Below, piece by piece: positions 1-12,547 of a stretch of DNA of 64,000 bases (the stretch's first letter is position 1; the number at the start of each line of letters is the position of its first letter). The stretch comes from Alphaproteobacteria bacterium (lineage in GTDB: Bacteria; Pseudomonadota; Alphaproteobacteria; GM7ARS4; G965262615). Position numbers and translations under genes: made by a program. A model generated the notes under the pieces. It was not told the origin of the DNA. It was given only the letters and a program-made list of their open reading frames with translations, and did no database searches. The stretch covers positions 544,001-608,000 of the forward strand of contig OZ253545.1 in the NCBI GenBank assembly GCA_965262615.1. The letters are read 5' to 3'.

Positions 1-732
1 CGGCAATTCAATTCCTGAAGATTGTTTTGTCTCACGAATGGCAAAGTGCTTAATTGAATTGAAGATGCCAGACAGAACATCGCTGTATTTTTCATCCGTT
101 TCATCATTTTTCATATCAGGCAAGTCCGTTTGTCTTTTGAATTGATCAAAAGAATCCCCTAATGCTTTGCCTCCATCCAGAAAATTGATTTGTGACCAAA
201 TATCATAGGGGCGATTGGCAACGGGCGTTCCTGTCATGATGATGCGCCGTTCAAAAGATGGCGCCATGTTCAAAAATACTTTGGTGATTTTGGAGTCAGG
301 ATTTTTGATTTTATGTGCCTCATCCAAAATCACACCGACACGACAGGTTTGCAAAAAAATCTTCAGCAATTCTTCATTGGCTGTCAAAACTTCATAATTC
401 ATCACATAGAGAAGCACAGGCGAATTGAGCAGCATGCTATTTTCTCTACGCTTTTGTGAAAGAATACTTGGCTTGATATGACAGTGAACCTGAGCCTCTT
501 CTCGCCAATTATGAACAAGAGATTTTTTTGTGACGATAAAAACCGTATCCACAATGTCCTTTGTGAGCCAAAAAAGAGTGAGATCCAAAGCAATCTTGGT
601 TTTTCCTAATCCTTGTTCATGAAAAACAGCCGCATAGGGCAAGTCTTGAATTGCTCGCAGTGCATCCAACTGATACGGAAAAGATTCCGTTTTGCCCATG
701 AAGCTGGGAGGCTTTTTCAAAACAAATGCCAT
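1..732 (-). CDS. SNF2/SWI2-family helicase/ATPase, N-terminal part (runs off window start)
   Basis: Not in the ORF track because it is truncated. Manual translation from ATG at 732: MAFVLKKPPSFMGKTESFPYQLDALRAIQDLPYAAVFHEQGLGKTK...TKKSLVHNW...MNYE...ILDEAHKIKNPDSK...MTGTPVANRPYDIWSQINFLD, giving the SNF2 Q-motif and motifs I, Ia, II (DEAH) and III (TGTP). The start overlaps the stop of the upstream ORF. Confidence 0.9.
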   Translation of the reverse strand, partial: MAFVLKKPPSFMGKTESFPYQLDALRAIQDLPYAAVFHEQGLGKTKIALDLTLFWLTKDIVDTVFIVTKKSLVHNWREEAQVHCHIKPSILSQKRRENSMLLNSPVLLYVMNYEVLTANEELLKIFLQTCRVGVILDEAHKIKNPDSKITKVFLNMAPSFERRIIMTGTPVANRPYDIWSQINFLDGGKALGDSFDQFKRQTDLPDMKNDETDEKYSDVLSGIFNSIKHFAIRETKQSSGIELP

Positions 733-1154
733 TTTATTTTTCCTCCTGCTTTTAAGAACCAAGCGTCACACTCATCAAAAACAATCATGTGGGTTCTTTT
801 TAATTTCATGTCGTCTCGTAATTTTTCTAGCACGAATTGCGTTTTTTCCAAGCACTCATAAGGCACAGACAACATCAATTGATTATCTTTACCTTTTTCA
901 AGGTAAGATAAAAAAGACTTGAATTGGCTGATACTATGACGACGCTCAATATCAAATGATGTCTTAGCCTCGCCAATGATAATCTGTTTTTTCGTTTCGG
1001 CGTATAGGTCAGGTCTGTGGCTACCGATAATGGGAGGTGTGGGGTCTCCCGGCTTTTCTTGAGCATCAACTACAGCCTTACTATCAGGAAAATTCTCATT
1101 GAGCCAAATTTCCATTTTTTTCACTAAGAGTCTGTGTTGCTCGCTTTCAGCCAT
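717..1154 (-). CDS. Small PD-(D/E)XK-like nuclease-fold protein (145 aa)
   Basis: N-terminal ESEQH..L helix followed by RPD...GEAK, the typical PD-(D/E)xK catalytic spacing. Lies between the ParB-like and SNF2 genes. Confidence 0.65.
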   Translation of the reverse strand: MAESEQHRLLVKKMEIWLNENFPDSKAVVDAQEKPGDPTPPIIGSHRPDLYAETKKQIIIGEAKTSFDIERRHSISQFKSFLSYLEKGKDNQLMLSVPYECLEKTQFVLEKLRDDMKLKRTHMIVFDECDAWFLKAGGKIKWHLF

Positions 1155-1173
1155 ATTGCAAGCTTAGCTATAA

Positions 1174-2199
1174 TTAATCCTTCCGCACCATCTGAAGAAG
1201 TGATTGCAAGTGGCTCAGTAAAGAATCCAAAACTCTCACTTCATCTTGTGCGTCTTCATTGCCAGCATCTTGTAGTCTTTGCACTTCAGAAAAAGACAGG
1301 GATGAAATTTTTTGCGACAGATTATCTGCCAATTGGCTTAATGACGCATTGCTCAAATTTTCATTGCCGGATTTTTGCTTTTCCTTCACTATGAGAAAAT
1401 CATTTGCTTCGCCGACCGAATTGATACCTCCTTTGAGGAATATATTTTTAGCCTCTGGGTCACGAAGGACTTTAGGTAAAATTCTCACATCCGCTAGGCG
1501 ATGAATCCAGCCATCGCGAATCCATTTTCCAAAATCTTCCAGCGAGTGACCGCTATCAAAGATAGCTTTCTTAACACCAGCCTTTTGCAATTCAACGAAG
1601 CCACTAAATCTATCTATGTGGAATTCATTGTCATTGACAGTGTTTTTATAAAATTCAATCATATCTTCATAAGCCTCTATCAAAATTTCAATTTCTCTTT
1701 TATTGCCGCCACAAAGAGCAACAATTTGATCGCGGCTCATAAAATTTTGATAATAGAGCTCATGCAAGTATTTTGCTTTTTCGTAAGCCGGCCAATCCCT
1801 CGGCGGCACCATGTGGGCAGCTATTCTGATGGTCTCAATACCAGCGCGGTCAATATTTTCTTTTACCTGTGCAGGTATTTTTCCCCAATGACCTGAAGCA
1901 TCATTTTTGAGAAATTCATGATAAATTGCCAAGCGTGTGTTTCCATCTATGCATTTGTACTCTCCATTTTCAATGACAACAATAATTGGCTGCTCGATTT
2001 TGCCGCCTGCTCTGATTGAATCTCTGAGCTTTGCAAAAGCTCCACTAGAGCCAGACTCACCTTCTCCAGCAGATCGCAAAGCAAAATAAATGCGTTCCGC
2101 CGTTATTTTGTCGCCATACTTCTCAAGTGCATTTTTGATGCGAGGATTCCCCGTATCGTATTCAATCTTATCAATATCAAGCAGCTGAATATCACTCAT
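1174..2199 (-). CDS. ParB/Srx-family N-terminal domain protein with HTH-like segment (341 aa)
   Basis: NPR...LRDSIRAGGKIEQPIIV...IDGNTRLA matches the ParB/Srx core, followed by WPAYEKAKYL..MSRDQIVALCG (HTH-like). No parA is adjacent. Confidence 0.8.
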   Translation of the reverse strand: MSDIQLLDIDKIEYDTGNPRIKNALEKYGDKITAERIYFALRSAGEGESGSSGAFAKLRDSIRAGGKIEQPIIVVIENGEYKCIDGNTRLAIYHEFLKNDASGHWGKIPAQVKENIDRAGIETIRIAAHMVPPRDWPAYEKAKYLHELYYQNFMSRDQIVALCGGNKREIEILIEAYEDMIEFYKNTVNDNEFHIDRFSGFVELQKAGVKKAIFDSGHSLEDFGKWIRDGWIHRLADVRILPKVLRDPEAKNIFLKGGINSVGEANDFLIVKEKQKSGNENLSNASLSQLADNLSQKISSLSFSEVQRLQDAGNEDAQDEVRVLDSLLSHLQSLLQMVRKD

Positions 2200-2218
2200 T
2201 GCTCACATCCGTCGGGCA

Positions 2219-2246
2219 ATTATACCATAAGTGGATTGATTCACAA
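2219..2246 (-). promoter_or_regulatory. Putative sigma70 promoter for the ParB-nuclease-SNF2 operon
   Basis: Minus strand TTGTGA-N16-TATAAT with extended -10 (TGgTATAAT), about 20 bp upstream of the ATG at 2199. Confidence 0.55.
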
Positions 2247-2343
2247 AAGCCTATGGAGAAAAATTTATCCGATTATCATCGTGGGACACAACCTCTTGCC
2301 TTTTCAGAAAAGTTAGGTATTATAGGGGCTTGCAAGTCATTAC

Positions 2344-2432
2344 TGGCGGATGGGGCGGGATTCGAACCCGCGAGGAGCAAAACCCCTGCCGGTTTTCAAG
2401 ACCGGTGCATTCGACCACTCTGCCACCCATCC
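2344..2432 (-). tRNA. tRNA-Ser(TGA)
   Basis: Reverse complement GGATGGGTGGCAGAGTGGTCGAATGCACCGGTCTTGAAAACCGG...GGTTCGAATCCCGCCCCATCCGCCA has a long variable arm, anticodon TGA and an encoded CCA. Confidence 0.95.
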
Positions 2433-4950: not shown

Positions 4951-6942
4951 ATGCATCATCCCTCGCCTTTTGACTCCTCGCCGTTTGCTCCTCCCTTTCC
5001 GCCCAAACGTTCGTTGTTCATGATGGCGATTGTGATGATGGTGCGCTTGGCGGCGGCATTGGCGGTGGTGGTGCTGGCGGTGGTGTTGTGGTACGGACGA
5101 GATTTGCCGAGGGTGGGAGAATCGGTGCATCCTGTGACTGCACCAAGCATCACTTTTTTAGACCGAGCGGGAAAAATTATGGCGGTGCGCGGGGCTTTTC
5201 GCGGTGAGGAGGTCTCTTGGGAGGAACTGCCACAGCACTTGATTGATGCCATTATTGTCACTGAAGACAGGCGGTTTTTCTCCCATCATGGTTTTGATGT
5301 GCGCTCCATTGTGCGTGCCGGATGGAGCAATATACGCTCCTTGCAGGTCAAGGAGGGCGGCAGCACCATCACACAGCAGCTGGCAAAGAATCTTTTTTTG
5401 ACTCCGCAGCGCACACTCAAGCGCAAGGTGCAGGAATTGTTGCTGAGCATTGCTCTTGAGTTTAGATACGACAAAAAGGAGATTTTCACGGCATATGTGA
5501 ATCGCGTTTATTTCGGTGCGGGAGCATGGGGCATTGGAGCGGCGGCGCGCATTTATTTTGGCAAGGATGTGGCATTGCTCAACATTTATGAATCGGCTCT
5601 GCTGGCAGGATTGTTGCGCGCGCCGTCACGCTATGCTCCCATCCATGCACCCCAAGAGGCACATGGCAGGGCGCGGCGCGTGCTGCTCAATATGGTGGAT
5701 GGCGGCATGATCAGTTTGGATGAAGCTCAATTTCTTTTGTCGCAAGGCGATAGTGAGCTGCATCAGCGAGAGCATCTGTTTGCCTCGCACTATTTTATTG
5801 ATTGGTTGATGCCTGAGGTTCAGGCGTTTGTGGATAAAGTCCAGCGCAATGTGATTGTGGAGACCACATTGGATATGGATTGGCAACAGAACAGCTCTCA
5901 ATTGGTGGGGGAATTGATTGAGCGAGAAGGCGAGCCGTTGTTGTTGGAACAAGCGGCGGTGCTGGTGATGAATCTATCGGGAGCGGTGCGGGTGATGGTG
6001 GGAGGCAAGGATTATTTAGCCAATCGTTACAATCGTGCCACCCGAGCATTGCGGCAACCGGGGTCGGCATTCAAATTATTTGTCTATTTGGCGGCACTGG
6101 AGGAGGGGCGCGCGCTGGATTCGTGGATGGAAGATCAAGCCATTGATATTGATGGGTGGCGACCGCGCAATTTTGATGAAGACTATCATGGAACGGTGTC
6201 GCTGGCATCGGCGTTTGCTCAGTCTCTTAACACGGTGGCGGTGCAGTTGAGCGAGGAGATGGGACGACAAAAAGTCATTGATATGGCATTGCGTTTTGGC
6301 ATTGAGGGGGTCGTGCCCAACACGCCGTCGGTTGCATTGGGGACGGCGAATATTAATTTGCTCTCTCTCACCAGTGCCTATGGCATGATTGCCCGCGGCG
6401 GCACGACTCTTCACGCCTATGGCATTGTCCGCATGACCGATGAACAAGGAGCTGTGCTCTATGAGCATCCGTCCGGGCAAGAGCAGGTGTCGCTGATTGA
6501 TGACAAAGCCGCCGAGACAATGACCGCCATGATGCGTTATGCCATGATACGAGGAACAGGGCGCGGGGCGTATCTGGAAAAACGCCCCGCAGCAGGCAAG
6601 ACAGGGACAAGTCAAAATTTTCGTGATGCATGGTTTGTGGGTTTTACGGCGAACTATGTGGCGGGTGTCTGGGTGGGCAACGATGACGAATCGGCAATGG
6701 CGGAAGTGACGGGCGGGTCTGTTCCCGCTCAATTGTGGCGGCAGGTGATGCTGCCCTTGCATGAATCTCTTCCCGTCACGCCGTTGGCGGGCGATGAGCT
6801 GGTGCGCTTGTTTCAAAGTATGGAAGCTTCTCCCCCTCCTGCAACACAAAGTGTGGGTTCTGGCGAGGAAGATGGCCAGGGTGATGGAGAGAGTGGTGGA
6901 GAGATTGAGACTCTGTTGCGCCGTCTGAATTTACTGGAATGA
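4951..6942 (+). CDS. Penicillin-binding protein 1A family (transglycosylase/transpeptidase)
   Basis: N-terminal TM segment; EDRRFFSH, GGSTITQQLAKN, RKVQE (transglycosylase); SAFK, SLN, KTG (transpeptidase). Confidence 0.93.
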   Translation: MHHPSPFDSSPFAPPFPPKRSLFMMAIVMMVRLAAALAVVVLAVVLWYGRDLPRVGESVHPVTAPSITFLDRAGKIMAVRGAFRGEEVSWEELPQHLIDAIIVTEDRRFFSHHGFDVRSIVRAGWSNIRSLQVKEGGSTITQQLAKNLFLTPQRTLKRKVQELLLSIALEFRYDKKEIFTAYVNRVYFGAGAWGIGAAARIYFGKDVALLNIYESALLAGLLRAPSRYAPIHAPQEAHGRARRVLLNMVDGGMISLDEAQFLLSQGDSELHQREHLFASHYFIDWLMPEVQAFVDKVQRNVIVETTLDMDWQQNSSQLVGELIEREGEPLLLEQAAVLVMNLSGAVRVMVGGKDYLANRYNRATRALRQPGSAFKLFVYLAALEEGRALDSWMEDQAIDIDGWRPRNFDEDYHGTVSLASAFAQSLNTVAVQLSEEMGRQKVIDMALRFGIEGVVPNTPSVALGTANINLLSLTSAYGMIARGGTTLHAYGIVRMTDEQGAVLYEHPSGQEQVSLIDDKAAETMTAMMRYAMIRGTGRGAYLEKRPAAGKTGTSQNFRDAWFVGFTANYVAGVWVGNDDESAMAEVTGGSVPAQLWRQVMLPLHESLPVTPLAGDELVRLFQSMEASPPPATQSVGSGEEDGQGDGESGGEIETLLRRLNLLE

Positions 6943-7705
6943 CTTCTTGACGATGATTAATGACTTCCCCAACAATCACCAGTGATGGCGGCGTGAGGTC
7001 AGCCGCACGCCGCGCCAACCGATTGAGCGGTGCAATAATAACCTTTTGCTGAGGTGTGGTGGCATGGGCAATGACCGCCGCGGGCTCATCAGGGTCTCTG
7101 CCGTTCTCAATGAGCAAATCACAGATGCGAGTCAATTTAGACAGTGCCATGAAGAACACCAGCACAGGAGAGGCGCGCGCAATGATATGCCAATCCAATT
7201 GCTGAGGAATATCGCCGCTTTTGTCGTGTCCGGTGATCATCATCACGGAGGCATTGACAAGGCGATGCGTCAGAGGAATTCCTGCGTATGAACACGCCGC
7301 CGTCACAGAAGAGATCCCCGGAATGATGCGTGTGGGAATGGCGTGGTGAGCCAATGCGGTGAGTTCTTCGCCACTGCGAGCGAACACGAGGGGGTCGCCT
7401 CCCTTGAGACGCAAGACTCTTTTGCCCGCCTTGGCTTCAGCAATGAGGCATTGATTGATGGATTCCTGTGTTGGCACACACCGTGCGCCGCGCCGTTTGC
7501 CCACAAAAATCGTCTCGGCATCAGGATGAATAAACTGAAGCAATTGGGTGTTGACCAAGCTGTCATAAAGAACAGTATCGGCGCGCCGCAGAGCATCCAT
7601 GAGATGAAGGGTGATGAGTCCCATGTCCCCAGTGCCTGCGCCGCCAATCCAGACACTGCCCGCGGCAAAAGGCGGACAAAAGGAAGAAAAATCAGGCTGT
7701 GTCAT
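6776..7705 (-). CDS. cobA: Uroporphyrinogen-III C-methyltransferase
   Basis: [44 protein letters not shown]. The C-terminal tail overlaps the PBP gene. Confidence 0.9.
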
Positions 7706-9494
7706 GATTCATGAGGAACAGCTGTTCCATTTGTTCAAGGAGCGTCTCCCCCAGCTGGGTGGCATCGGAGATGGTGACTGCATGGCGATAGTATTTGGAC
7801 ACATCATGCCCAATGCCAATGGCTTTGAGCTCAATGGGGGTGTGATTTTCAATATGATGCACCACCGCCGCCAGATGATCTTCCAAGAGATTGCCATGAT
7901 TGGCGGAGAAGGTGGAGTCATCCACAGGTGCGCCATCGGAGATGACCAGCAGGATGCGTCTGTCCTCAAATCGCCGCAGCAGGCGTTGGCATGCCCACAA
8001 TAGAGCTTCGCCATCAATGTTTTCTTTGAGCAGTCCCTCTTTGAGCATTAATCCCAGTCGTTGTCTGCCGTGACGCATGGGGGTGTCGCCATCTTTATAG
8101 ATGATGTGCAGCAGTTCATTGAGGCGACCCGGATTTTGAGGTTTGCCGTCACTGGTCCACAGTTCTCTGAGTCGTCCGCCTTTCCAAGCGTTGGTGGTAA
8201 AGCCGCAGATTTCGCTTTTGACACCGCATCGCTCCAGAGTGCACGCGAGAATGTCGGCACACATGGCTGCCAAAGCGATGGGGCGACCCCGCATAGAGCC
8301 CGAATTGTCAATGAGCAATGTCACAACCGTGTGACGCACTGAGGCGCGCTGTTCCTGTCGCCACGGTGTTGGATACAGAGGATTGGCAATCACGCGGGCG
8401 AGGCGCGAGCCATCAAGAAATCCCTCTTCGCAATCAAGCCGCCAGTTTTGTTTGTTTTTGGCGAGCAATCGTCTTTGCAGACGTTTTGCAAGACGCACCA
8501 CAACGGCGCGATAGGGAGCGATTTGCTCGTCCAATGATTGCCGCAGATGACGCAGCTCCTCATGGCTTGCCAGTTCCATAGGGGTGCAGGTGGAGTCGTA
8601 ATGCCTGCTGTAGGGGCGATAGCGGTGAAATATGTGCTGACTTTCATCATGGGTGTCATGAGGCGACAACAGAGGATGACGCGCCTCTTCCTGATGAGGC
8701 ATGGGAATCCAGTGATTTTTTTTCTTGGGTTGCTTTTGCGTGAGACGAGATTCATCCCCATCGGATTCGGCGGCGGTGAGGGAGGCTGTATCGTCACCAA
8801 GTGAGTCCTCTTCCGAAGGAGCGGGCGGCGCATCTGTCTCATCATCTGCTGGGGGCGGCTGTGTTTCTTGAACCTGATCATGCCAGAGGGTGAGCCACTG
8901 CTGGCAGGCGTGGGCAAAGCGGCCTTGGTCATGAACGAGAGGAAGCAATGATTCCATGACGGGAGCAAAAAAATTCATCAGCACATGATTTTTTTCCGTG
9001 ACAATGCGCCGATGGTGAGGGTGAGCCTTGCCCGCCGCCGCCAGCAACAAAAAACGCAAACGCAAAGCATCATTGTCAGATGCGTGGCGACTCATCTCGC
9101 TCAGACGCGCCTGCAAATTGGCTTCCAAGCCTTTCATGTCTTGTGTGCCGCACAAAAACAGACGGGTCTCCTCAAGGGCATCATAGCCCTGTGCCAGTGA
9201 CGAATGGTGCGGACGATATTGCTGGTGAATGGTACTGTCATGAAAACGCAGTGCCAATGCAATGGCATCCCCTTGTCCTCTTAGATGGACGCGTTGCTTG
9301 GGCGACAGCGATGAGTCGTCAAGCCATTGTTGCTTGCTTTGGGTGATGCAAATTCTGTGCGGCGATTCCAGTGGGTCGGCGGGGGACTCCTCATAGCGAC
9401 AGGAAACATCGGCAGACGATGCGCCAATCGCTTGCGTCACTTTGACCAGATGCTCGCAAAATAATTCTTTAGGATGGCGCATAATCGTTGCCAC
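7692..9494 (-). CDS. cobT: Cobaltochelatase subunit CobT
   Basis: vWA domain [40 protein letters not shown]; follows cobS. Confidence 0.92.
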
Positions 9495-10449
9495 CGTCCA
9501 TCAAAGACTCATTGAAACAGCGTTGATAACATTCATTGAGCAGGGGGTGTTCGCTCTCATCACTGCGATTGAAAAAAGACAGGCGAAAGGCAAACGCCGT
9601 GTCGGCGAAAATATCATGATTTTTCACCCAGCTCATCACGGTGCGCGGGGACATCACGGTGGAGAGATTCCCTTTGGCAAAACTGGTGCGGGTGAGATTG
9701 GCGAGCGTCACCATGTGTGCCAACAATTGTCGTCCTTTTTGATTGTTGTGATGAGGGTAGAGTGCCAGCAAAATGGCGATTTCTTCCTCTTTTGGAAGAT
9801 AATTAAGCGTCACCACGCTGTTCCAGCGATCCAGCTGTCCCTGATTGAGCTGCTGCGTGCCGTGATACAAACCACTGCTATCGCCCAAGCCGATGGTGTT
9901 GGCGGTGGCAAACAGACGAAAAGACGGATGAGGTGTCAGCACCTGTTTTTGCTCAAGGAGCGTGAGTTTGCCATCGTGTTCCAGCACTCGTTGCAACAGA
10001 AACATCACATCGGGGCGAGCGGCATCATATTCGTCAAACACCAGAGCCATCGGGCGCGTCAGTGCCCAGGGCAAAATGCCCATAGAAAATTCCGTCACTT
10101 GTTTGTTGTCATGGAGAACGATGGCATCCTTGCCGATGAGATCCATGCGGGTGATGTGTCCATCCAAATTGATTCGCACGCAAGGCCAACGCAAGCGCGC
10201 CGCGACTTGCTCAATATGGGTGGATTTGCCCGTGCCGTGATAGCCCTGAATGAGCGTGCGTTGGTTATGAGCAAAGCCCGCACAGATGGCAAGAGTCGTT
10301 TCTCGCTGAAAGCGGTAATGAGGGTCAATGGACGGAACATGTGCCATCAATTCGGTAAAGGCAGGACACTGCATGTCGGTGTCTATGCCGAATTGCTGTC
10401 TGACCGAAATGCTGATGTCGGGCTGGGTGGTTTGTGGCTCGGCGGGCAT
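9469..10449 (-). CDS. cobS: Cobaltochelatase subunit CobS (AAA+)
   Basis: [44 protein letters not shown]. Confidence 0.95.
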
Positions 10450-10452
10450 GGC

Positions 10453-10950
10453 TCACTTCCTGATTCCATAATCCACAAAGTGCAGAAGATGACGATAGGC
10501 ATCATTGATGGCACTCATGCGGCGCGCTTTTTTCTCGTCTCCGTGATTGGCATCAGGGTGATGCAGCTTCACAAGGTGACGGTAGCGTCTTTTGACATCA
10601 ATTTTTTCACAAGAGGGAGAAAGAGAAAACAGCGACAGGGCTTGGCGGGTCTTTGGCGGCAATGGCAAAGGTTCTTGGAAATCCAGAGCGTCATCAATCC
10701 TCATATACGGCGACACGCGATGCGTGCCAAAACGCCATGTGGGACGCATCCCCACCAAAGCATCCCGCTGAAAGCGTCTGATAAAGCCTTCACTGCAGCC
10801 GGCAAAATAGTTCCACTGTTTGTTATAAAGGCGCACATGTTTATAGCAGAACCAATGATAATCATGCGCGGCGCGACTCTTGGGCGCAGGATAATGAGCC
10901 TCTTCATTGCATCCCTCGTAGTCACACATGCGTGGCGGCGTTTTATTCAT
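10453..10950 (-). CDS. J-domain (DnaJ-like) protein
   Basis: C-x4-C...APKSR...WFC..HVRLYNKQWNYF N-terminus and C-terminal J domain with HHPD; this gene typically sits upstream of cobS in Alphaproteobacteria. Confidence 0.85.
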   Translation of the reverse strand: MNKTPPRMCDYEGCNEEAHYPAPKSRAAHDYHWFCYKHVRLYNKQWNYFAGCSEGFIRRFQRDALVGMRPTWRFGTHRVSPYMRIDDALDFQEPLPLPPKTRQALSLFSLSPSCEKIDVKRRYRHLVKLHHPDANHGDEKKARRMSAINDAYRHLLHFVDYGIRK

Positions 10951-10992
10951 GCCAGCTAGTATGGTGTGTGTCGCCGTCAGACGCAAGACGGC

Positions 10993-11580
10993 TTAAGGAT
11001 ACAGATGGGTGCGTTGCCACTGAGTGTGGCTGATGTCATCACGGCAAAAAAGGAGTCGCTCATGAAGGCGTCCGTCTCGTCTGTGCCAGAATTCCATGCT
11101 GAGAGGTTCAAGACGAAAGCCGCTCCAGTGGTCAGGGCGAGGCACATCATGTCCGTGAAATTTTTTTTGCATGTGCTGCAATCGCCTCTCCAGTGTGGCG
11201 GGCGCATCAAGGGGTGCCGATTGCTTTGATGCCCACGCCCCCAACTGACTCAAACGATGACGGCTGGCAAAATAAGCGTTGGCTTCCTCAGAATCAACAG
11301 GCTTGACAGTGCCCTCCATGCGAATTTGCACATCAAGAGGATGCCAATAACAACACAAAGCCGCTTGGGGATTGTGAGCAATGTCTTGCGCCTTGCGGCT
11401 GGCAAGATTGGTGTAGAAGACAAAGCCGCGCCCATCCATTTGTTTGAGCAAAATCATGCGCACCGAGACTTTGCCGTGAGCATCACTGGTGGCAAGGGCG
11501 GCGGCGGTGGCATCCATGCCCTCTTGCTTTTGAGCTTGGGCAAAATAGTGAGCAAAGAGAGCAAAGGGGTCGGTGGTCAT
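10993..11580 (-). CDS. pdxH: Pyridoxamine 5'-phosphate oxidase
   Basis: RMILLK, FYTNLASRK, GAWASKQS, EFWHRRDGRLHER. Confidence 0.93.
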   Translation of the reverse strand: MTTDPFALFAHYFAQAQKQEGMDATAAALATSDAHGKVSVRMILLKQMDGRGFVFYTNLASRKAQDIAHNPQAALCCYWHPLDVQIRMEGTVKPVDSEEANAYFASRHRLSQLGAWASKQSAPLDAPATLERRLQHMQKKFHGHDVPRPDHWSGFRLEPLSMEFWHRRDGRLHERLLFCRDDISHTQWQRTHLYP

Positions 11581-11581
11581 G

Positions 11582-12547
11582 TCACCAGCGCACCAAAGCC
11601 GCCCCCCATGTCAAGCCGCCGCCGATGGCATTGAGCAGCAACACATCGCCCTTGTGCAAGCGTCCTTCTTCTTGCCACAGTGCCAACGCCAGAGGAATGG
11701 ATGCCGATGAGGTATTGGCATGACGATCCACTGTCACCACAAGCTTTTGGCGATCAATGGACAATTGGTCTGCCACCTTATCCATGATGCGCTTGTTGGC
11801 TTGATGGGGAATGAGCCAGGTCACCTCATCAGCGTCACGAGAGGCATCGCGCAGCACCTGCTGGCTGGATTGAGTCAGATAGGTGACCGCTTTGCGATAA
11901 ATCTCCTTGCCGTTCATGCACAGATGTCCTGCTTGTCCAGTGGTGGAGGGACCGCCATTCACATACAGGGCATCATAGTCGCCGCCGTCACTATAGAGAC
12001 GAATGCGTTCTATTCCCGCATCCCCATTGGTTTTCTCCAGCACCGCTGCGCCCGCACCATCACCGAACAGGACGGCGGTGCTGCGATCATTCCAATTCAG
12101 AATACGGCTATAGCTTTCTGCGCCAATGACCAACGCGCGCTCTATGGAAGGCATGGCGGGATTTTTCATCATGGAATCGGCAACCGCCAAACCATAGAGA
12201 AAGCCCGAACAAACCGCTTGCACATCAAAAGCAAACGCCGAGCTGCCCAGACGATGCTGCACCTTTGTCGCTGTCGCGGGAAAGGTGTTGTCAGGCGTGG
12301 AGGTCGCCACAATGATGGCATCAATGTCACTGCCTGTGAGGGATGCTCGTTGCAGAGCTTGCATCGCTGCATGATATGCCATGTCTGAGGTGTATTCGTC
12401 ATCGGCGGCGATGTGACGCTGGCGGATGCCACTGCGATCTCGAATCCATTGGTCGTTGGTGTCCATGATGGCACTGAGGTCATCATTGGTCATGATGCGC
12501 TTGGGCACATAGGAGCCGCACGCAACCATGCGGATTGCCACAGTCAT
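11582..12547 (-). CDS. fabH: 3-oxoacyl-ACP synthase III
   Basis: QAVCSGF, FGDGAGA, PHQAN, ANTSSASIP, GGGLTWG. Confidence 0.95.
   Translation of the reverse strand: MTVAIRMVACGSYVPKRIMTNDDLSAIMDTNDQWIRDRSGIRQRHIAADDEYTSDMAYHAAMQALQRASLTGSDIDAIIVATSTPDNTFPATATKVQHRLGSSAFAFDVQAVCSGFLYGLAVADSMMKNPAMPSIERALVIGAESYSRILNWNDRSTAVLFGDGAGAAVLEKTNGDAGIERIRLYSDGGDYDALYVNGGPSTTGQAGHLCMNGKEIYRKAVTYLTQSSQQVLRDASRDADEVTWLIPHQANKRIMDKVADQLSIDRQKLVVTVDRHANTSSASIPLALALWQEEGRLHKGDVLLLNAIGGGLTWGAALVRW

Follow-up and report, generated by a model that had tools for sequence, protein, structure and literature searches.

The left edge of the DNA stretch analysed here, a window of 64,000 nucleotides (nt; G000:C1:544001-608000) from the 1.54-Mb, single-contig genome of an alphaproteobacterial host (G000), runs through an operon of six genes, all on the minus strand, that encode in order a ParB-like protein (ParB1), a predicted PD-(D/E)xK nuclease, an SNF2 ATPase, a second ParB-like protein (ParB2), a radical S-adenosylmethionine (SAM) enzyme (rSAM), and an Hsp90-like GHKL ATPase (GHKL). 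The trio of ParB1, nuclease, and SNF2, which had been put forward from the letters of the window alone as a candidate undescribed defence system (the original prediction), is the promoter-proximal half of this single six-gene operon. The operon is widespread and apparently undescribed, and it probably protects against foreign DNA.

Within the window, ParB1 (341 amino acids, aa; 1174..2199, minus strand) combines a ParB/Srx-type N-terminal domain with a helical C-terminal part, and it is followed by the stand-alone nuclease (145 aa; 717..1154, minus strand; similar to a type IIS cleavage domain) and by the first 244 codons of the 491-aa SNF2 protein (1..732, minus strand, with the ATG at 732, in an open reading frame, or ORF, that spans 1-762 and is open at the window edge). 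The remaining genes were located in a sequence that begins 17 kb further left (L001, in which a position minus 17000 equals the window position): SNF2 in full (491 aa; L001 16257-17732), ParB2 (326 aa; L001 15280-16260), rSAM (533 aa; L001 13695-15296, with its start placed by homologues), and GHKL (483 aa; L001 12247-13698), each on the minus strand. The five junctions consist of a 19-nt gap followed by overlaps of 16, 4, 17, and 4 nt, and a promoter-like site of the extended -10 type (TTGTGA-16-TGg-TATAAT; 2219..2246, minus strand; 10/12 plus the TG in a consensus scan, and a consensus match only) ends 20 nt 5′ of the ParB1 start codon. Because the junctions are tight and there is one promoter-like site, the six genes are read as a single operon. 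The original prediction had anticipated that further genes might lie past the window edge, and ParB2, rSAM, and GHKL were found there; its three co-oriented and tightly coupled genes, with an extended -10 promoter-like site of their own, are real, but the unit is larger than the trio, comprising a four-gene module that includes ParB2, plus the rSAM-GHKL pair.

The three window genes lie on the 3′ side of a tRNA-Ser gene (anticodon tga; 2344..2432, minus strand; ARAGORN), because the tRNA is also encoded on the minus strand, with its 3′ end toward the operon; the placement of the genes directly past this tRNA, as first described, is correct, and so is their AT-rich character. GC content is 0.38-0.43 over window positions 1-2250, versus 0.514 genome-wide, and 0.52-0.56 rightward; the operon as a contrast to the genome stands at 39-42% versus 51%. 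The rSAM gene occurs in 3 of 41 relatives and in 4 of the phylum's 401 genomes, one of which is G000 itself. The operon, low in GC and patchy in distribution, is best read as horizontally acquired.

Two collections of loci were compared: a genome set from an rSAM-anchored scan of species-representative genomes, which returned at least 571 loci across many phyla and of which the best 80 were analysed, and a metagenome set from a reciprocal, ParB1-anchored scan, in which 80 loci were kept of 570 relatives. The rSAM relatives number more than 7,800; one cluster is 99% identical, and the best-scoring ones apart from it share 63-68% identity and represent many phyla. The genes for ParB1, nuclease, SNF2, and ParB2 are colinear and on one strand in every locus that holds all four (24/24 genome, 52/52 metagenome, and 5/5 viral-contig loci, or 81/81 loci other than that of the host), and given this recurrence the four-gene order is not due to chance; the three-gene order, whose conservation across genomes had been proposed as a check on the trio, is kept within it.

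The relation between this four-gene module and the rSAM-GHKL pair is asymmetric. Among the 80 ParB1-anchored metagenome loci, 51 carry rSAM, 28 are on contigs that are too short, and a single locus (L096) lacks rSAM with at least 4.5 kb present on both sides, such that the pair is found in 51 of the 52 informative loci. In the genome set, GHKL directly follows rSAM in all 80 loci, while ParB1 is found in 35, ParB2 in 34, SNF2 in 32, and the nuclease in 25 (the ParB counts include weak cross-matches from a variant with three tandem ParB genes and a divergent SNF2), and 31 of 79 rSAM-anchored loci contain a ParB/SNF2 module. Because of this asymmetry (51/52 versus 31/79), the four-gene module is taken to depend on the rSAM-GHKL pair, and not the reverse. 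In the 25 loci with all six genes, median identity to the host proteins is 64% for rSAM, 51% for SNF2, 42% for ParB1, 38% for GHKL, 34% for ParB2, and 31% for the nuclease, and by these comparisons rSAM is by far the most conserved part of the operon and the slowest to evolve.

The CxxxCxxC motif of rSAM is invariant (C183, C187, and C190 in 17 sequences), and the protein scores 26.6 bits against the Pfam Radical_SAM model, just under the cut-off of 29.5. Its predicted fold consists of an N-terminal Rossmann/cobalamin-binding-like domain, an rSAM barrel, and a long helical C-terminal region. Structural matches with VIA at Z 10.5-12.7 include AprD4, MgmA, OxsB, TsrM, MiaB, TokK, RimO, and CysS, of which the group from AprD4 to MiaB is nearest (11-12.7), and Foldseek returns E values of 3e-7 to 4e-4 against cobalamin-domain rSAM enzymes and their relatives, at 10-16% identity. 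AprD4, which has the same fold as rSAM, is also among the top structural matches beside the cobalamin-domain enzymes. Taken separately, the N-terminal domain matches cobalamin-binding domains at Z 8-9.8 (AerR, 9.8; the MetH cobalamin domain, 9.1-9.3), and a distant rSAM relative on a viral contig has a Pfam B12-binding match at 1.7e-5, below the cut-off. The N-terminus is thereby predicted to be cobalamin-domain-like, in the sense of a likeness of fold. The two-domain fold with its CxxxCxxC motif is common to the operon enzyme and to cobalamin-domain rSAMs, AprD4, MiaB, and RimO, but the operon family differs from them in its conservation across phyla (∼64%), in the GHKL gene that always comes after it, and in its helical C-terminus. 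Assignment as a MiaB/RimO-type methylthiotransferase was considered and rejected: no invariant or near-invariant Cys precedes residue 183, and the only conserved Cys residues outside the cluster motif are C276 (invariant) and C289 (at least 90%). Because the N-terminal domain has no conserved Cys, it would hold no auxiliary cluster of the methylthiotransferase type, and rSAM is therefore not regarded as a methylthiotransferase.

The partner of rSAM matches Pfam HATPase_c_3 above the cut-off (41.3 bits, cut-off 25), and its Bergerat-fold ATP site is intact, with E27, N31, D34, D65, G69, G95, G98, and G100 invariant in 29 sequences. The nearest solved structure is the N-terminal domain of HtpG/Hsp90 (3.9e-13). 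The protein was rejected as an HtpG orthologue, given its score for the HSP90 family equivalog (35.9 bits versus 455).

In the 145-aa protein, the motif RPD...GEAK is well kept, with D49, G61, A63, and K64 invariant and E62 retained in at least 90% of 22 homologues. The top Foldseek matches of its AlphaFold2 model (predicted local distance difference test score 91.7) are XisH, SfsA, YaeQ, Hjc, and McrC, all of the restriction-endonuclease fold and all marginal (E ∼1e-3). With VIA, the model aligns with the catalytic domain of Nt.BspD6I at Z 8.8 (root mean square deviation 3.9, 134 residues aligned), the small subunit of R.BspD6I at 8.5, PaqCI and NucS at 7.5, and FokI at 7.1, scores that barely exceed the stated noise level of the method (Z 7-8); the sequence profile matched nothing in the PDB below E 0.4. 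Since predicted fold and motif point the same way, the identification of a PD-(D/E)xK nuclease, already proposed in the original prediction from the spacing of the motif, is a sound call for the modelled protein.

The SNF2 assignment is equally in keeping with what was first proposed. The part within the window matches Pfam SNF2-rel_dom at 7.5e-23, and the whole protein exceeds the cut-offs for both SNF2-rel_dom (1.9e-28; 99.8 bits, cut-off 24.9) and Helicase_C (1e-18; 68 bits, cut-off 23.5), with intact ATPase motifs that are invariant in 21 homologues: G41-T45 (Walker A, GLGKT), D137 and E138 (DE(AH)), and Q413-R420 (motif VI, QxQDRIHR). A natural nuclease-SNF2 fusion (P0121, 634 aa), one protein present on four contigs, came to light in a search for nuclease relatives of greater length; its residues 1-126 correspond to the nuclease and retain HRPD...GEAK, its residues 146-619 match SNF2 at 43% identity, and the order of the domains is that of the genes in the operon. 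Because of this fusion and of the 16-nt overlap between the two genes, which implies translational coupling, the sequences support the view that nuclease and SNF2 translocase may form a physical unit.

ParB1 and ParB2 are homologous to one another (hhalign probability 99.8, E 1.3e-28). The N-terminal domain of ParB1 contains GNPR (17-20), L..SI...G...QPI, and DGNTR (85-89), with N18 P19 R20, S61 I62, P71, and G86 N87 T88 R89 invariant in 25 homologues, and in ParB2 the residues N31 P32 R33 and E93 G94 N95 R97 are invariant in 27 sequences; these correspond to the NPR box and the GxxR arginine signature of the ParB/Srx superfamily. Matches to profiles are weaker. ParB1 scores 14.5 bits against Pfam ParB_N (PF02195; cut-off 26.3, E 0.038), below the threshold, and ParB2 has no Pfam match; against the PDB, the ParB1 profile finds SbnI (0.014) and Noc (0.078) weakly, and that of ParB2 finds nothing below E 1. 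PHROG families named ‘ParB-like partition protein’ match the two proteins weakly (2.9e-6 for ParB1, and 1.7e-6), and the Atlas cluster nearest to ParB1 is named ‘ParB N-terminal domain-containing protein’ (score 0.98), with ParB_N in 59% of its 2357 members. A weak match to PADLOC PDC-M38A (22.6 bits, E 7.4e-6 for ParB1; E 3.8e-4 for ParB2) covers, in ParB1, 158 of 715 profile positions only, and the term ‘PDC-M38’ was not found in a full-text search of the literature. By their sequences, ParB1 and ParB2 are most plausibly ParB/Srx-like proteins, as had been said of ParB1, and the remark that no parA lies beside ParB1 also holds among the operon genes and scanned neighbours.

ParB and Noc are DNA clamps gated by cytidine triphosphate, and the ParB/Srx fold also includes enzymes such as SbnI. 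The operon proteins share with ParB/Noc and SbnI the motifs of the N-terminal domain (the NPR box, L..SI...G...PI, and GxxR with its invariant Arg), but differ in that they have no ParA/parS context, match Pfam ParB_N below the cut-off, and occur as a paralogous pair whose operon also encodes a nuclease and an SNF2 ATPase.

The four-gene module is one of several partners of the rSAM-GHKL pair, which is also found in loci that lack the module and have PIN, HerA, or DndB-type partners in its place. Within the best 80 genome loci, a DndB/DpdB-type (DGQHR) ParB protein lies directly upstream of rSAM in 41, a larger DndB fusion is near the pair in 18, a PIN_8 protein with a second GHKL ATPase (GHKL2) accompanies it in 31, and a HerA/DndH-C-terminal-like ATPase with a GHKL protein and a protein of unknown type (c8) is found in ∼10. 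Four accessory-module labels (ParB-SNF2, PIN_8+GHKL2, HerA+GHKL+c8, and DndB fusion) were tallied in the 55 loci that are flanked on each side by at least 8 kb, L012 being left out since its rSAM ORF fell outside the cluster. At least one such module is present in 53 of these loci, and two loci have none of the four types; the ParB-SNF2 module occurs in 26, and in 10 of those a PIN_8-GHKL2 module is also arranged round the single rSAM. Nuclease domains occur in the ParB-SNF2 and PIN_8 modules, and weakly in the DndB fusion. The host operon is of a compact type, with ParB2 immediately next to rSAM and no DGQHR protein, as are L003, L004, L005, L007, and L013. In a further variant (L018, L039, L042, L066, and L070), three tandem ParB genes and a divergent SNF2 (35-37% identity to that of the host) adjoin rSAM-GHKL, and no nuclease homologue was detected in these five loci.

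The chromosomal position of the operon is also informative. Two relatives of the same order (G001 and G003) retain the arrangement DUF3280 ... tRNA-Ser(tga)-gyrB, and in G001 the slot (L165 1503-3137) holds a DUF6996/DUF6997 protein, similar to type II restriction endonucleases, and a methylase, that is, a type II restriction-modification system, while in G003 (L166 833-4872) an AIPR protein is encoded between two methylases, with TPR proteins as well. The tRNA-Ser/gyrB slot is a variable defence hot spot. The proposal that the trio is a candidate defence system is consistent with this context, given the restriction-modification and AIPR genes in the same slot of two relatives and the three PADLOC candidates (PDC-S19, PDC-S54, and PDC-M41) within 18 kb. 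The accompanying suggestion that the tRNA 3′ end served as an integration site was not upheld: the longest match to the tRNA 3′ end in 46 kb leftward is 12 nt long (E 0.27) and lies inside a gene, which speaks against a classical tRNA island, and the ORFs scanned from C1:527001 up to the tRNA yielded no integrase.

Rhizobia and sphingomonads carry copies of the system on large plasmids, under annotations that go no further than ‘DGQHR domain protein / radical SAM protein / ATP-binding protein / PIN-like’. Copies are also present on viral contigs, mostly with the system complete. Among nine close IMG/VR copies, five have the canonical four-gene module and a sixth (L171) has the divergent ParB/SNF2 variant; no PIN_8 module was found in the scan of viral contigs. 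GenBank phages have only rSAM relatives at 38% identity or less, one of which, in Marinitoga camini virus 1, adjoins genes annotated as HerA helicase and single-stranded exonuclease. A distant relative of the pair occurs in a conserved four-gene block on four IMG/VR contigs (L176, L177, L179, and L182, at about 5200-11900 in each), which encodes an unknown protein of ∼390 aa, a protein of ∼565 aa with a weak HAS-barrel match, a GHKL protein, and an rSAM of ∼620 aa (29-44% identity, with a weak B12-binding match). The order there is reversed, with GHKL before rSAM, and the block adjoins an integrase, CI-type repressors, ABC-type ATPases, and a Macro-domain gene.

Dpd is a 7-deazaguanine DNA modification-restriction island, with DpdB beside the modifying enzyme and the SNF2-type DpdE in the restriction half, and ZorD and the type I/III restriction enzymes combine a superfamily 2 translocase with a PD-(D/E)xK nuclease. 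The original prediction recognised no named system in the trio, and the tests for Zorya, DISARM, Dpd, and Dnd indeed failed. SNF2 matches the PADLOC 2.0 models for ZorD (3.2e-48), DpdE (2.4e-33), and DrmD (7.3e-16) in the helicase core only, and its NCBIfam scores for ZorD (75.6 bits, cut-off 1500), DpdE (45, cut-off 500), and DrmD (54.5, cut-off 950; 49.6, cut-off 610) are 3-20 fold below the equivalog cut-offs. No ZorA, ZorB, or ZorC was found in the operon, the only part of the genome in which they were looked for, and the operon likewise has no DrmA, DrmB, or DrmC, no TGT-like DpdA or DpdC, and no DndA, DndC, DndD, or DndE.

Several likenesses to these systems are nonetheless apparent, alongside the differences. 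With Dpd, the operon shares an SNF2 protein that matches DpdE, and in related loci the DGQHR neighbours of rSAM match DpdB (2.8e-13), but there is no DpdA or DpdC, and rSAM with its Hsp90-like ATPase stands in the modification position. As in ZorD and type I/III enzymes, an SNF2 motor is linked to a restriction-endonuclease fold (by the fusion P0121, and with ZorD as the best PADLOC match); unlike in those enzymes, there is no methylase or specificity subunit, the 145-aa nuclease is separate, and two ParB proteins flank the nuclease-SNF2 pair. In the available text on Dnd/Ssp, DndB-type ParB proteins are described beside modification enzymes, and the modification module is not bound to any one nuclease module but joins with different ones (PMC10853773). 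The likeness to Dnd/Ssp lies in the related loci, with their DndB-type proteins, swappable modules, and HerA/DndH-like ATPases, and not in the host operon, where no DGQHR protein is present and ParB2 abuts rSAM. By analogy, the operon may work most like Dpd or Dnd, with a ParB-type protein, an unusual modification enzyme, and restriction by a helicase and nuclease, yet it passes none of the tests for membership in either.

No description of the six-gene set was found by full-text searches of the literature, which covered running text, and no such gene set is described in the accessible parts of PMC10853773, PMC3632139, PMC2292703, PMC3226654, PMC10250203, and PMC4158269, or of the two preprints cited below. 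The closest mention is in a preprint (bioRxiv 10.64898/2026.10.19.760177), the available portion of which describes HSP90-like NTPases as switches and lists ‘PAACC + HSP90 chaperone + Radical SAM enzyme’ as a three-gene neighbourhood among toxin-antitoxin-like immune contexts. The pairing of an Hsp90-like ATPase with a radical SAM enzyme and the immune context are shared with the operon, but in that portion the neighbourhood is a one-line mention without ParB, SNF2, or nuclease, and its families may or may not be those of the operon. An unannotated protein of ∼220 aa (cluster c12) lies beside rSAM-GHKL in L013, L019, L039, and L043, and might be the PAACC partner of the preprint. Ophion (rSAM+PHP+PRTase) is described in the accessible text as a radical SAM effector in defence (bioRxiv 10.1101/2025.09.30.679545); Ophion and Ambrosia, as far as they are described there, are different systems from the six-gene set.

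The reading that we favour, tentatively and at somewhat less than an even chance, is a modification-restriction-like defence in which rSAM-GHKL marks self DNA and a ParB-gated SNF2-nuclease attacks unmarked DNA. In this scheme, rSAM with its GHKL partner would place a covalent mark on the host's own DNA, its presumed substrate; the small nuclease, complexed with the SNF2 translocase, would form an endonuclease that translocates, comparable to type I/III enzymes or ZorD; and the ParB paralogues, as putative nucleoside triphosphate (NTP)-dependent DNA-binding gates, would load on DNA and license cleavage where the mark is absent. Such a design fits because of the one-way dependence between the modules, the several modules that share one rSAM pair, the DndB/DpdB-type neighbours, and the slow evolution of rSAM. 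The earlier idea of a ParB clamp that licenses SNF2 and nuclease may describe the effector half of the system, but it omits the most conserved component, rSAM. A more specific form of this reading is possible, though doubtful: that the operon represents a widespread immune family which tags host DNA through radical-SAM chemistry (for example C-methylation or some other functionalisation of a C-H bond, on base or sugar), with a cobalamin-domain-type rSAM loaded on DNA by the Hsp90-like ATPase, and with interchangeable restriction modules that read the mark, of which the ParB-gated SNF2-nuclease would be one.

A number of observations weigh against a modification-restriction role. Radical SAM enzymes are not known to mark cellular DNA as self, and PADLOC 2.0 has no rSAM model. 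Paralogues that cluster with GHKL are also found paired with PIN_8 or with HerA/c8, and these pairings are fitted by a GHKL switch with an interchangeable effector, in which rSAM would be an effector rather than a modifier. A phage-borne orphan rSAM-GHKL pair would have been a sign of DNA self-protection, and the close family was not found in that form on phages. The ParB/Srx assignment itself rests on motifs and on sub-threshold hidden Markov model matches, ParB2 shows no homology to the DGQHR proteins (hhalign probability 0.08), and the module tallies were obtained with a home-made ORF caller and BLAST clustering.

The main rival, which we consider unlikely, is a sensor-effector system of the abortive-infection type without DNA marking, in which GHKL would sense infection, rSAM would make a toxic or signalling nucleotide or damage a target, and ParB-nuclease-SNF2-ParB would be a second, co-regulated effector or sensor arm. 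Viperins are radical SAM effectors in defence, and Ophion offers a further case of such an effector; in addition, GHKL paralogues pair with other effector-like enzymes (PIN_8, HerA/c8) in the same loci, and the neighbourhood in the preprint, in its available text, is read as toxin-antitoxin-like immunity, although the pair mentioned there may belong to another family. A conflict effector would, however, be unusual as the slowest-evolving component, with a median identity of 64% across phyla; moreover, DndB/DpdB-type proteins flank rSAM, as they do in modification modules, and several accessory modules, at least two of which (ParB-SNF2 and PIN_8) have nuclease domains, use one rSAM pair.

It is quite improbable that the operon is instead a non-defence module that travels on mobile DNA and serves DNA transactions such as repair, the remodelling of chromatin, or the silencing of genes, with ParB and SNF2 as remodellers and rSAM repairing or modifying a lesion. 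Spore-photoproduct lyase is a precedent for a radical SAM enzyme that acts on DNA, SNF2, ParB, and GHKL proteins act on DNA or chromatin in other settings, and some copies lie on the large plasmids of rhizobia and sphingomonads; this proposal accords poorly with the patchy distribution (3/41 and 4/401 genomes), suggestive of horizontal gene transfer, and the low GC content of the operon, with the restriction-modification or AIPR genes that occupy the slot in relatives, and with the association with PIN, HerA/DndH-like, and PD-(D/E)xK nucleases. That the operon serves the partition, replication, or maintenance of a prophage or plasmid, to which the weak PHROG matches and the copies on plasmids or IMG/VR contigs might point, is very improbable, as no ParA, replication, integrase, or structural gene lies in or beside the operon, the ParB proteins are partnered with a nuclease, SNF2, rSAM, and GHKL, and the module occupies many unrelated chromosomal sites in many phyla. 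Equally remote is a divergent member of a named system (Zorya, DISARM, Dpd, Dnd, or PADLOC PDC-M38), which the SNF2 matches to ZorD, DpdE, and DrmD and the ParB1 match to PDC-M38A would favour, but against which stand the confinement of the SNF2 matches to the helicase core, the NCBIfam scores far under their cut-offs, and an operon in which ZorABC, DrmABC, DpdA/C, and DndACDE are not encoded.

Beyond the operon, a 196-aa ORF (L001 11076-11666) follows after a 580-nt gap and has its own promoter (11854-11827, minus strand; 12/12 to the sigma-70 consensus). It covers only positions 6-191, the N-terminal half, of the 410-position PDC-S54 profile (7.9e-32), and despite the perfect promoter it looks like a truncated remnant; it was rejected as a member of the operon, as it is carried by none of the 80 genome and none of the 80 metagenome loci. 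The PDC-S19 candidate, which combines DUF3644 with an EC042_2821 restriction endonuclease-like domain (L001 8075-9952, or G000:C1:535075-536952; 1.3e-107), adjoins an oppositely oriented N6/N4 DNA methyltransferase (type II or orphan) ∼2 kb from the end of the operon, and is a candidate defence unit. The PDC-M41 pair (L001 958-2571, or G000:C1:527958-529571) consists of a B gene encoding DUF5131 (1.6e-119) and an A gene (1.2e-61 to PDC-M41A) with a weak match to RlmJ-like methyltransferases; in 7 of the best 80 genome loci, DUF5131 genes are found no more than 10 kb from rSAM. Between the PDC-M41 and PDC-S19 candidates (L001 4885-5825) are two tandem paralogues of the RDD family of membrane proteins, with weak matches to the C-terminal part of PADLOC PD-T4-6 (2.6e-8 and 1.2e-5).

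The rSAM-GHKL pair is present in at least 571 species-representative genomes from many phyla, with thousands of protein relatives, and neither NCBIfam nor PADLOC 2.0 has an entry for it. If rSAM modifies DNA, it would extend the small group of known DNA self-marking systems by a new chemistry and provide a new class of enzyme for DNA labelling, and, should the more specific form of radical-SAM marking be true, a new chemical class of epigenetic self-marking would stand beside methylation, phosphorothioation, and 7-deazaguanine. If rSAM is instead an effector, it would represent a new radical-SAM arm of immunity beyond the viperins. In either case, ParB-nuclease-SNF2-ParB would offer a clean case for the study of how ParB/Srx NTPase switches, known from chromosome partition, come to gate a translocating nuclease.

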